Part shown: positions 9,133 to 11,683 of the stretch, piece after piece
Position numbering within the stretch: the first letter of the stretch is position 1
Layout of the letters: each line of letters starts with the position of its first letter
NCBI GenBank assembly: GCA_046497275.1
Contig: JAWOFX010000019.1
Location: 30,001 to 62,000 of the forward strand
Origin: Promethearchaeia archaeon
GTDB lineage: Archaea; Asgardarchaeota; Lokiarchaeia; Sigyniarchaeales; SOKP01
Direction: 5' to 3'
DNA length: 32,000 nt
Translations under genes and position numbers: made by a program
The notes under the pieces: generated by a model
The model's input: the letters and a program-made list of their open reading frames with translations, nothing else
Told to the model about the DNA's origin: nothing
Databases searched by the model: none

Positions 9133-9366
9133 CTAATGATGATTGGAATAATATTTTTTTAATTTTATATCTTCGCTTCCATTTGGTAATATGTAATCGG
9201 GTGAGACATATCCTTCTTTTTCAAACCTTCTTTTTCTCACACAATTTTTACCTCCATTCCAACAATAATTTTCAACCCATTTTTTATCAATTAAACCTTG
9301 ATCATAAGCACGTTTTATTGCGGAAGTTTCATCATACCATCTGCAGATATTCTTATCTTTCTTCAT
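9133..9366 (-). CDS. Small Cys-containing hypothetical protein (77 aa)
   Basis: Start revised to ATG 9366 (MKKDKNICRWY...) because the upstream 24 codons are low-complexity AT-rich sequence. Pattern CRWY...W-x-ENYC-x6-C-x-R...PDYILPNGS. Confidence 0.65.
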   Translation of the reverse strand: MKKDKNICRWYDETSAIKRAYDQGLIDKKWVENYCWNGGKNCVRKRRFEKEGYVSPDYILPNGSEDIKLKKYYSNHH

Positions 9367-9473
9367 AGGAAAGTAAATATTCGATACTTTTATAAAATTC
9401 TTAATTATTTTTTTTAAAAAATCTATTTTAAAAATCAAAAATCTTTAAGAAACTCATATTATAGATTATTGAA

Positions 9474-10265
9474 ATGAATGAATTTAGCTTGAGATTTATA
9501 AATGATACTTCTCTAAAGGGGAAAGTAGTTCTTATTACTGGTGCTACTGGAGGTATTGGAGCTGCAATTAGTAAGAGATTTGCAGAATTAGGATCTTTTG
9601 TCTATATGTGTGATATCAAGGAAACGGTTGATTTAGCAAAAAAAATAAATAAAAATTTTGATGACCAAAGAGCGATCCCCGCACAATTTGACATCTCTGA
9701 TAAAAATAGGGTTGAAGAAATGTTTCAGAAAATAGAAAAGGAGAAGAAGAAATTAGATATTCTTATTAACAATGCTGCCATTCATGGAAGTGGTAACTTT
9801 CTGGAGATTTCCTACGAAAGCTTTTTGAGAACCATTATGATTGATCTCTCTGGTGCTATGTATTGTACCCTAAAAGCACTTCCCTATATGAAAAAAAATA
9901 AATGGGGGAGGATAATATTTACTGGAGCTCCTTTATCTTCTTCGGGTATTCCATGTCCTTATCTTGCGGGGAAATCTAGCTTTATTGGATTAGCGAAATA
10001 TATTTCCGAAAAATATAAAGAATATGATATCAGAACATTTACTTTAGTCTTACGACATTGCGATACTCCAATGATTAGAAAAGTCATGGAAGCAAGAGGT
10101 AAAGATATCAATAAAGCTATTAAAGAATTAAATAAAAAGTCTAAAACTGGAAAAATGATAACTCCAAAAGAAGTTGCTGAAATTTATGCTTATTTTTGTC
10201 TCGCTAAATCATCCAAAGTAAATGGTTTAACTCTTCTCTCAGACGGGGGGATAACCTATCTTTAA
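9474..10265 (+). CDS. Short-chain dehydrogenase/reductase (probably NAD-preferring)
   Basis: TGATGGIG Rossmann motif, acidic residue at the end of beta-2 (MCDIK), NNAA, catalytic YxxxK (YLAGK), C-terminal NGLTLLSDGG. Confidence 0.9.
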   Translation: MNEFSLRFINDTSLKGKVVLITGATGGIGAAISKRFAELGSFVYMCDIKETVDLAKKINKNFDDQRAIPAQFDISDKNRVEEMFQKIEKEKKKLDILINNAAIHGSGNFLEISYESFLRTIMIDLSGAMYCTLKALPYMKKNKWGRIIFTGAPLSSSGIPCPYLAGKSSFIGLAKYISEKYKEYDIRTFTLVLRHCDTPMIRKVMEARGKDINKAIKELNKKSKTGKMITPKEVAEIYAYFCLAKSSKVNGLTLLSDGGITYL

Positions 10266-10269
10266 AATA

Positions 10270-10276
10270 GAGGTGA
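10270..10276 (+). promoter_or_regulatory. Shine-Dalgarno GAGGTGA
   Basis: Perfect archaeal anti-SD match 5 nt after the SDR1 stop and 3-6 nt before in-frame ATT codons. Confidence 0.75.
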
Positions 10277-10279
10277 TAA

Positions 10280-10981
10280 ATTATTCAAAAAATTGATTAT
10301 AAAGGTAGAAATTGTATTATTTTCGCTATAAATAGCTTCGTTGGAAAGATAATTGGAAAATTTCTAACTCAGGAGAGAGCAAATTTAGGCTTAATAGATC
10401 TTAAAAAGTATGAGAAGAGACAAATCTCTAAGAATTTAATTAATAATAATAAGGTTATCTATAAAACAGTCGAATCCAGCAATCAATATCAGATAAATGA
10501 AGTAATTGAGAATTTATACAAAGAATTTGGAAATATTGATTATCTGATCTGTTCTTTCTATATAGAAGATATTAGATCTAATATTGAAGATGATGATTTA
10601 TCCTTAAAAACTTGGGAGTGTATATTTCAAGATTGGTTAATCAATTACTTTCTCATTTTAAAAGCTGTTGTTCCATTGATGATTAAAGCCAAAAAGGGAA
10701 AAATAATCTTTATCAATACAACGACTGGATATACAGGCGAAGGGGAGGGAGAAGGAAGGATAGATCTAAATGGATCTATTCATGAAAATGCGTGTTCAAG
10801 TGGAATCACAGGCATGCTAACTTCAATCGCAGCAGATATTATTCCTCAAGGAATATCTGTTAATGGAATCGCTCTCGGAAATGATTATGTGAATGATTCT
10901 GAGAGATTATTATGGGCTATTAATCTCTGGCTCTCGGGAATTGGGGACTATTCTTGTGGACAAATTCTTAGGTTGTATTAA
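10280..10981 (+). CDS. SDR-fold protein with degenerate catalytic and cofactor motifs (pseudo-SDR), 233 aa, probable ATT start
   Basis: The ORF track begins at TTG 10676, but the frame is open back to an in-frame TAA at 10277-10279 (checked codon by codon). The extension reads IIQKIDYKGRNCIIFAINSFVGKIIGKFL...LYKEFGNIDYLICS, an SDR N-terminal half. The C-half has GKIIFINT and SIAADIIPQGISVNGIALG. Confidence 0.8.
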   Translation: MIQKIDYKGRNCIIFAINSFVGKIIGKFLTQERANLGLIDLKKYEKRQISKNLINNNKVIYKTVESSNQYQINEVIENLYKEFGNIDYLICSFYIEDIRSNIEDDDLSLKTWECIFQDWLINYFLILKAVVPLMIKAKKGKIIFINTTTGYTGEGEGEGRIDLNGSIHENACSSGITGMLTSIAADIIPQGISVNGIALGNDYVNDSERLLWAINLWLSGIGDYSCGQILRLY

Positions 10982-11002
10982 TTTTTTTACCGTAAATTAA
11001 TA

Positions 11003-11683
11003 ATGTTTAAACAATTTTTTTCAATGGAGTTATTCTTTAATATGGAATTTTTAAGTAAGGAAGAAAGGATACAAATTTTAAAAGACTGGGATCTATACGA
11101 TTTATCATTAAACATTCAAATAGTCAAAATTTTTGAAAATGTAAGAGATATCCGTTTTGGAAGAATGGGCTCTAGAGACCCCTTAGATGTCTATAAAGCG
11201 AATAAAGGAACATGTTCGGGAAAGAACTTTTTATTGCGAGAATTATATAAAGGAATTGGATTAAAAACAAAGGATATGATTTGCATGCAGCGTTGGAAAG
11301 ATTTAATATGGTTTCCAACTGATAAATATAAATTAGTACAATTTCCTGAAGAATTAAAACAGATGTTAGAAGACCACGAAATTATCGACTTTCATAACTA
11401 TGTCAAAATATTTGTAAATGATATTTGGATCCAAGTTGATGTCACAATTGACAAATCTCTTAAAAAACTCGGTTTTTTTACTACAGAAGATTGGGATGGA
11501 TTATCTGATATGCCACTTTGTTTTTGCGGAACTGATAAAGTTTGGGATTGTGGAGATAATGGACGAAATAAGAAAAAAGAATTAGTTCGTCAACTTCCTG
11601 AGCACATTGAATTAGCGAGAAATCAATTTCTTGAAAAAATGACAAAATGGATTGATAAACTAAGACAAAATAATGAAATATAA
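11003..11683 (+). CDS. Transglutaminase-like (papain-fold) protein
   Basis: Cys-His-Asp triad in the expected order and context: GTCSGKNFLL, DFHNYVKI, WIQVDVT. Alternative start ATG 11042. Confidence 0.65.
   Translation: MFKQFFSMELFFNMEFLSKEERIQILKDWDLYDLSLNIQIVKIFENVRDIRFGRMGSRDPLDVYKANKGTCSGKNFLLRELYKGIGLKTKDMICMQRWKDLIWFPTDKYKLVQFPEELKQMLEDHEIIDFHNYVKIFVNDIWIQVDVTIDKSLKKLGFFTTEDWDGLSDMPLCFCGTDKVWDCGDNGRNKKKELVRQLPEHIELARNQFLEKMTKWIDKLRQNNEI

Follow-up and report, generated by a model that had tools for sequence, protein, structure and literature searches.

How is a gene translated when the first 132 codons of its reading frame contain no canonical start codon? This question was raised by SDR2, a gene of the short-chain dehydrogenase (SDR) type in a 32,000-nucleotide (nt) stretch of DNA from a Promethearchaeia archaeon (C156:30001-62000), which is referred to below as the window. 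The source is a metagenome-assembled genome (MAG; label G000) of 3.85 Mb, with 188 contigs, a completeness of 98.9% and a base composition of ∼30% G+C. The original prediction had proposed that SDR2 is a full-length gene initiated at ATT, that such initiation is rare and that it may keep the product substoichiometric. The start region, public sequencing runs, orthologous loci and the rest of the genome were examined, and the results suggested that SDR2 is very probably a real, full-length, translated gene with an AUU start codon, most likely the ATT at positions 10283 to 10285. All window features described here are located on the plus strand.

Anatomy of the SDR2 start region

The SDR2 coding sequence extends from 10283 to 10981 and encodes 232 amino acids followed by a TAA stop codon (10979 to 10981). 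A Shine-Dalgarno (SD) sequence, GAGGTGAT, is present at 10270 to 10277 and consists of the predicted GAGGTGA motif (10270 to 10276) plus a T at 10277, which extends the match to an 8-nt perfect complement of the 3' end of the genome's own 16S rRNA (...GGATCACCTCCT). Just upstream of the ATT codons, the SDR2 frame is closed by consecutive TGA and TAA codons (10274 to 10279); the TAA at 10277 to 10279 had been put forward as a bar to any earlier start, and a further in-frame stop, TAG, is present at 10268 to 10270 (the TGA is at 10274 to 10276). The first ATT (10280 to 10282) is located 3 nt after the GGTGA motif and the second ATT, the proposed start codon (10283 to 10285), 6 nt after it. As had been described, no stop codon and no ATG, GTG or TTG codon is found in the 132 codons from 10280 to a TTG at 10676, and SDR2 ranks fifth for length free of a canonical start among the 3,938 stop-to-stop open reading frames (ORFs) of at least 100 codons in the genome. 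The first canonical starts are the adjacent TTG and ATG codons at 10676 to 10681. The gene-caller start is located there, giving products of 101 or 100 amino acids, and no SD sequence is present ahead of the TTG. The truncation expected of gene callers was indeed observed, as the protein database holds a 100-amino-acid record (P0003) that is 100% identical to this gene and a 107-amino-acid record (P0004) for a sister species.

The preceding gene, SDR1 (9474 to 10265), was confirmed to be in another frame and ends with a TAA codon (10263 to 10265) that is 17 nt before the proposed SDR2 start and 14 nt upstream of 10280. A fusion of SDR1 and SDR2 by frameshifting or read-through was rejected: the SDR1 frame closes at 10265, the SDR2 frame contains the TAG, TGA and TAA codons at 10268 to 10279, and every orthologue is a separate gene with its own SD sequence and start.

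The MAG origin of the sequence and the modest depth of the probable source run (∼7.4) could favor a sequencing or assembly error at a true ATG codon, for which a check had been advised in the original prediction. Logan contigs from four public runs were placed on positions 9300 to 11100 for a comparison of strains. An independent re-assembly of the source run was identical in its letters to the window. The three other runs, an independent one of freshwater-sediment DNA and two of salt-lake RNA libraries that belong to two further studies, read CTT ATT and differed from the window at two places only, namely, 10280 A>C and 10308 G>A (Arg10Lys). Positions 10282 to 10285 were unchanged in all of the runs, with a T at 10282 and 10285 in the three other runs from three studies, and a G was observed at 10282 or 10285 in none of the four; therefore, ATG is not the true sequence. 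As a sister species from two further samples also reads ATT ATT, we consider an error to be extremely unlikely. Closely related strains thus do without the first ATT but keep the second.

The 10308 G>A change, which converts Arg10 to the family-consensus Lys, was linked to 10280 A>C in all three runs, and in a 905-base contig of run X2 these were the sole differences, both being within the first ten codons of SDR2. The RNA-library contigs spanned 10163 to 10690 and are a weak sign of SDR2 transcription; other parts of the stretch had no cover in these runs. RNA editing of AUU to AUG found no support, as the contigs from the two RNA-library studies, which may include DNA, were unchanged at 10282 and 10285.

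Conservation of the amino-terminal half

The region upstream of the TTG at 10676 had been interpreted as the amino-terminal half of an SDR and hence as translated, and several lines of evidence bore this out. The Pfam adh_short domain matched residues 21 to 200 of SDR2 (E value of 3.9e-13; 49.7 bits versus a cutoff of 26.6), and alignments with SDR2 orthologues started at residues 3 to 7. A two-chain model of SDR1 with SDR2 gave a score of 0.80 in comparison to 0.00 for the best control; the runs agreed on at least 92% of the contacts, and the partner pLDDT (predicted local distance difference test) value was at least 86. Of 80 solved complexes, 58 attained the mark set for this score, as did 2 of 110 mismatched pairs. 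The predicted interface is the classical SDR helix pair and includes SDR2 residues 106 to 134, which are encoded upstream of the TTG. The adh_short match, the starts of the orthologues and the predicted interface all indicate that the amino-terminal half is needed. According to this model, SDR2 and SDR1, the latter with its catalytic residues intact, probably form a heteromer by way of the SDR helix interface. Reduced production of SDR2 owing to its ATT codon, as the original prediction had envisaged, is speculation and fits poorly with the 1:1 heterodimer that the model predicts.

A sister lineage was represented by a metagenome contig (L095; 52 kb, 74% amino-acid identity) and an independent Logan contig (L104), derived from two samples. 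A metagenome scan with a single protein had returned one locus, and a search for shorter proteins returned three. Both sister contigs read GGGGTGA TGA ATT ATT CAA AAA and thus have the in-frame stop, both ATT codons and the GGTGA motif as in the window; their first canonical start occurs only at codon 128 to 129. FastTree analysis of seven orthologues grouped L095 with the window gene as sisters at a support of 0.98, and an ATG-bearing congener (L031) was placed outside this pair. Comparison of the window gene and L095 over the 131-codon amino-terminal half detected a nonsynonymous divergence (dN) of 0.21 and a synonymous divergence (dS) of 1.02 (dN/dS of 0.21), and a dN/dS of 0.09 was obtained for the carboxy-terminal half. 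The amino-terminal half is under purifying selection between these two lineages. As untranslated DNA of 30% G+C would gain stop codons and have a dN/dS near 1, these values argue that the amino-terminal half was translated throughout the divergence. Among the ATT-led genes described below, SDR2 provides the cleanest evolutionary evidence so far, with two lineages at a dS of ∼1 and a canonical start in neither.

Start codons were also compared among orthologues, another of the checks that had been suggested. Besides other Asgard MAGs, orthologues occur in a Thermoplasmata MAG and in many bacteria, and nearly all have an ATG or GTG codon shortly after an AGGAGG-type SD sequence. This SD sequence comes right after the stop codon of the SDR1 orthologue, and the orthologues start at the same place as SDR2. 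An orthologue from the same genus (L002/L031) has an ATG start, and the ATG of a further orthologue (L003/L034) aligns codon for codon with the first ATT of the window. An orthologue from another genus (L004/L032; genome G016) has ATT and then ATC where its nearest relatives carry ATG. An upstream ATG is unlikely to be the true start of this last gene: it is formed in another frame by the conserved Asp-Gly codons of SDR1, has no SD sequence and is also present in L033 and L034, although each of these carries a separate ATG at the usual position.

The ATG of the same-genus orthologue raised the possibility of a loss of the start by mutation of ATG to ATT, by which SDR2 would be a young pseudogene or would yield only a 100- to 101-amino-acid carboxy-terminal piece from the TTG at 10676 or the ATG at 10679. 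The 100-amino-acid form in the public protein record, an approximately 2-fold excess of unique amino-acid changes in the amino-terminal half of the window lineage and a 5'-truncated copy on one European Nucleotide Archive (ENA) scaffold (L105) agree with such a loss. However, the two ATT codons are also present in the sister lineage, and the amino-terminal half has stayed open across a dS of ∼1 at 30% G+C with a dN/dS of 0.21. The carboxy-terminal piece would miss Rossmann strands 1 to 4 and half of the predicted interface, its TTG lacks an SD sequence and ∼18 other genes likewise combine an SD sequence with ATT and encode essential domains ahead of the first canonical start. We therefore regard loss of the start as improbable and continue with initiation at AUU as the favored explanation.

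Two other orthologous loci had unusual 5' regions. An SDR2 orthologue in a Lachnospiraceae MAG (L054:~1980-2010) reads AAGGAGGTGGAAAAT ATC and lacks a nearby ATG; translation may begin at this ATC or at a GTG inside the SD sequence. On the ENA scaffold (TANS21-1...scaffold_11204; L105:232-759), homology with SDR2 begins only at about residue 83, and the sequence upstream is unrelated and richer in G+C, with no SDR1 present; the copy is a remnant of a truncated gene, or else the assembly is chimeric.

Probable ATT starts in the genome and in related genera

A genome-wide scan for strong SD sequences with ATT openings had also been proposed. The anatomy scanned for was a GGTGA motif, a codon at a distance of d nt, an in-frame stop no more than 12 codons upstream and an ORF of at least 100 codons, with no ATG, GTG or TTG in the 20 codons after the candidate. 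At a d value of 6, the whole genome contained 10 ATT, 7 TTG, 4 ATG, 2 GTG, 2 ATA and 2 ACG codons, and five control 5-mers produced 0 to 1 ATT at any spacing. Only 2 ATT codons were found 3 nt after GGTGA, one of which was the first ATT of SDR2. A wider scan utilized all five 5-mers of GGAGGTGATC at an aligned spacing of 5 to 7 nt, with counting of unique genes and a reversed-SD control. The numbers for the real SD and the control were 49 and 14 for ATG, 28 and 3 for TTG, 18 and 2 for ATT, 4 and 1 for ATA and 3 and 3 for GTG, respectively. The composition-matched triplets AAT, TTT, TTA and AAA were each found twice after the real SD (control values of 1, 2 and 1 for AAT, TTT and TTA; AAA not listed). 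ATT was thus the third commonest codon after an SD sequence in this genome and approximately 6-fold more frequent than GTG. ATT, TTG and GTG were concentrated at exactly 6 nt and ATG was spread over 4 to 9 nt, and such clustering of the weak codons would be expected if these starts depend on optimal placement of the SD sequence.

In 6 of 10 ATT-led ORFs searched against Pfam, a domain starts upstream of the first canonical start. These were a thiolase (domain from residue 13; first canonical start at residue 48), GCHY-1/folE2 (6 and 33), a helix-turn-helix (HTH) protein (12 and 40), an Arf-like GTPase (14 and 27), a TPP_enzyme_C protein (67 and 73) and a UQ_con protein (25 and 49). Judged by these domain positions, the other ATT-led genes are genuine. 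The rarity ascribed to AUU initiation in the original prediction did not hold for this organism, in which about 18 to 30 genes appear to use ATT, including those for aIF1 and folE2, and related genera conserve the ATT.

A few long ORFs with no canonical start nearby were also observed behind ATA, ATC or ACG codons 6 to 7 nt after GGTGA (C7:1410, C59:8824, C41:2248 and C139:5502), and further near-cognate codons may serve as starts. An AMP-binding enzyme is the product of the ORF at C7:1410, which is led by ATA.

The spacing data bear on which ATT of SDR2 is utilized. Initiation of the same gene by the same mechanism at the first ATT (10280 to 10282) would be in keeping with the alignment of this codon with the ATG of L003/L034 and the ATT of L004/L032, with its location 6 nt after the GAGG core and with its presence in the sister species. 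This codon is, however, CTT in the independent DNA run and the two RNA-library runs, in which the second ATT is constant, and the distance of 3 nt after GGTGA is shared with a single other ATT in the genome-wide scan in comparison to the 10 found at 6 nt. We consider the first ATT to have a small chance of being the start. The second ATT (10283) is likely to be the better candidate because 6 nt is the preferred spacing of the genome, because this codon is invariant in the runs examined and the sister species and because the first ATT is replaced by CTT in three runs. The AUU initiation proposed originally was therefore supported by the SD sequence, the sister lineage and the genome-wide enrichment, with the start moved to the likelier second ATT.

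Another potential explanation is re-initiation that does not depend on the codon, in which ribosomes arriving from the SDR1 stop are held by the SD sequence and resume at the codons that follow, the ATT being incidental. The SDR1 stop is only 17 nt upstream, and SDR1 and SDR2 are spaced equally tightly at all 25 orthologous loci. Against this, the ATT is kept in strains and the sister species while the preceding codon varies, the enrichment at 6 nt from GGTGA is specific to ATT in comparison to composition-matched triplets, and the orthologues keep ATG or GTG at this site. Such re-initiation is, in our assessment, marginally less probable even than loss of the start. 

For initiation at AUU proper, the favored explanation, pairing of GAGGTGAT with the 3' end of the 16S rRNA would bring into the P site the codon that lies 6 nt beyond GGTGA, and there an ordinary initiator tRNA with the anticodon CAU would decode AUU with a third-position mismatch, and ribosomes terminating on SDR1 17 nt upstream may help by translational coupling. 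Decoding of AUU by Met-tRNAi and the efficiency of this decoding in use are inferred. More generally, AUU would be a regular start codon in this Lokiarchaeia-type family, dependent on a strong and well-spaced SD sequence and utilized by roughly 20 to 30 genes per genome.

An unusual initiator tRNA was rejected as the cause of AUU usage. A motif search of the genome for an initiator-type anticodon stem-loop (GGGCTCATAACCC; CAU) detected one match, at G000:C34:~11018 (plus strand), and this sole anticodon arm of the initiator type is ordinary and canonical, although the full tRNA was not rebuilt. Rfam detected 26 tRNAs in the genome, and aragorn, with and without its intron mode, found few tRNAs and no tRNA-Met. 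The 3' half following the arm ends with ...CCCGCTACCA, and the 35 nt ahead of the arm contain no obvious 5' acceptor half; a split or intron-bearing initiator tRNA gene is possible.

Several points weigh against initiation of SDR2 at the second ATT as set out above. In the amino-terminal half, unique amino-acid changes are about twice as numerous in the window lineage as in the ATG-bearing congener, with window-to-congener ratios of 20:8, 16:8, 18:9 and 12:9 for four outgroups (P values of 0.04 to 0.66); this excess was significant in relative-rate comparisons with one of the four outgroups only, and it hints weakly that constraint on this half may be somewhat relaxed in the window lineage. 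The choice of 10283 over 10280 rests on spacing statistics and one polymorphism, and in L003/L034 the ATG corresponds in the alignment to the first ATT rather than the second. In Escherichia coli, AUU gives only 1 to 2% of the level obtained with AUG (bioRxiv 10.1101/063800). The RNA-library contigs may reflect DNA carry-over, so that they attest to presence in the libraries and do not prove transcription. Dimers of SDR proteins are abundant among solved structures, and the score of the two-chain model may reflect that likeness and not this particular pair.

Two further loci indicated that noncanonical starts extend beyond a single genome. The gene for aIF1 (SUI1; G000:C118:~66900-67204; L092) has no canonical start ahead of the zinc knuckle. 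Comparison with loci L074 to L091 showed an ATT at the matching place in most genera of the family and TTG or ATG in sister families. The folE2 (GCHY-1) locus of the source genome (L063; G000:C111:7145-8101, minus strand) and its relatives (L096 to L099) start with ATT in G000, G004, G016 and G018 and with ATA in G006, covering three genera, and in all five genomes the start is 6 to 7 nt after GGTGA or GGTGG. folE2 is thus a housekeeping gene with a conserved noncanonical start.

By analogy with bacterial infC, an AUU-started aIF1 could provide feedback on the stringency of start-codon selection. Eukaryotic eIF1 limits its own translation by feedback, and the proposed aIF1 loop resembles this arrangement. 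We tentatively suggest, as a possibility that we hold to be rather less than even, that start selection is relaxed across this Lokiarchaeia family, so that AUU permanently serves as the third start codon wherever a strong SD sequence is exactly spaced, that aIF1 is itself AUU initiated and that translation of SDR2 and some 20 to 30 other genes would track aIF1 activity. Beyond SDR2, the set tuned by aIF1 would, within the same tentative proposal, comprise the genes for the thiolase, folE2, an HdrA-like protein, CorA, small GTPases and an E2-like enzyme. If true, such an AUU gene set would be an archaeal counterpart of the infC/IF3 feedback.

In E. coli, infC and pcnB are the only confirmed AUU genes (bioRxiv 10.1101/063800), and ebpA of Enterococcus faecalis is a further bacterial example (PMC4447247). 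The genes described here resemble these three in having AUU behind an SD sequence and in being missed or truncated by annotation, and infC encodes a factor that polices start codons, as does the AUU-started aIF1 gene in this family. The two E. coli genes, in an organism in which AUU works at 1 to 2% of the AUG level, differ in number from the roughly 18 to 30 genes per genome found here. Furthermore, the machinery here is archaeal (aIF1, aIF1A and aIF2) and not IF3. With regard to autoregulation of the infC type, the one observation made here is the AUU start of aIF1 itself.

Reviews of archaeal initiation list AUG, GUG and UUG only (PMC7531240), and aIF1 discriminates against other codons (PMC7531240, PMC6237735); AUU as a regular start would bear on this account. 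Ribosome profiling of Haloferax detected candidate near-cognate starts, which were set aside (PMC7261190). No systematic description of ATT or AUU initiation in archaea, Asgard or otherwise, was found in a literature search of incomplete coverage; the sole mention was a remark on AtubA of a Kariarchaeaceae (Heimdallarchaeia) MAG, for which a "rare ATT start codon" was inferred (Sci Adv 2026, PMC13394414). AtubA is likewise an Asgard gene, the inferred ATT lies upstream and is plausibly spaced from a ribosome-binding site, and its protein was deposited without the first beta-strand, which illustrates the practical cost of a missed ATT. It differs from the present case in being a single-gene remark in the methods, in another Asgard class, without analysis of conservation, selection or genome-wide usage (PMC13394414). 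Callers that allow only ATG, GTG and TTG cut SDR2 to 100 amino acids and would cut or miss the amino termini of about twenty other proteins per genome in this family, among them families of interest in Asgard archaea such as small GTPases, the E2-like enzyme and aIF1.

The SDR2 product and its gene cassette

SDR1 is a 263-amino-acid classical short-chain dehydrogenase (Pfam adh_short, E value of 3.2e-39) and the first gene of a cassette. Its TGxxGGIG, NNAA and YLAGK motifs are intact and were invariant in 23 orthologues. In SDR2, the glycine motif is degenerate, with FAINSFVG (family consensus GANSFVG) in comparison to TGxxxGxG. Alignment with PDB entry 6d9y placed a Glu at the position of the catalytic Tyr and a Ser at that of the Lys (IHENACSS), and hence the YxxxK pattern is absent. 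This Glu168 is nearly invariant in 25 orthologues, and the GYTGEGEGEG, ACSS and carboxy-terminal CGQILRLY motifs are invariant. By its motifs, SDR2 is a protein with the SDR fold but not a standard active SDR.

SDR1 and SDR2 were adjacent at all 25 genome loci, and a third gene (11003 to 11683; up to 226 amino acids) was adjacent to them at every complete genome locus examined. The cassette (9474 to 11683 in the window; loci L031 to L055) occurs at 35 to 77% identity in Asgard archaea, a Thermoplasmata MAG and several bacterial groups, namely, Anaerolineae, Deltaproteobacteria/Desulfosarcina, Synergistales and Clostridia. This distribution suggests that the cassette may have spread horizontally as a unit.

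The working picture is of an active SDR with a noncatalytic SDR-fold partner, which would be similar in outline to BbsCD of anaerobic toluene degradation, and the ATT start restores a complete form of this partner to the three-gene cassette. BbsC is the inactive subunit of BbsCD. Both systems have adjacent SDR genes, of which one has an intact catalytic motif and the other has lost it, and in the present case the dimer is predicted. BbsD (PDB 7pcs_B) was among the profile matches of SDR2, with an E value of 2.6e-10 that reflects family-level similarity only. Differences from BbsCD are the invariant GYTGEGEGEG loop and ACSS motif that are particular to SDR2 and the third gene by which SDR2 is always accompanied.

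The third protein has a size of ∼215 to 226 amino acids across the cassettes. It had no match in sequence searches of Pfam, NCBIfam or PDB, and a transglutaminase-like fold is a lead only, obtained from a language model. The gene has in-frame ATG codons at 11003, 11024 and 11042; alignments with orthologues start between residues 2 and 24, and the Atlas record starts at the third ATG.

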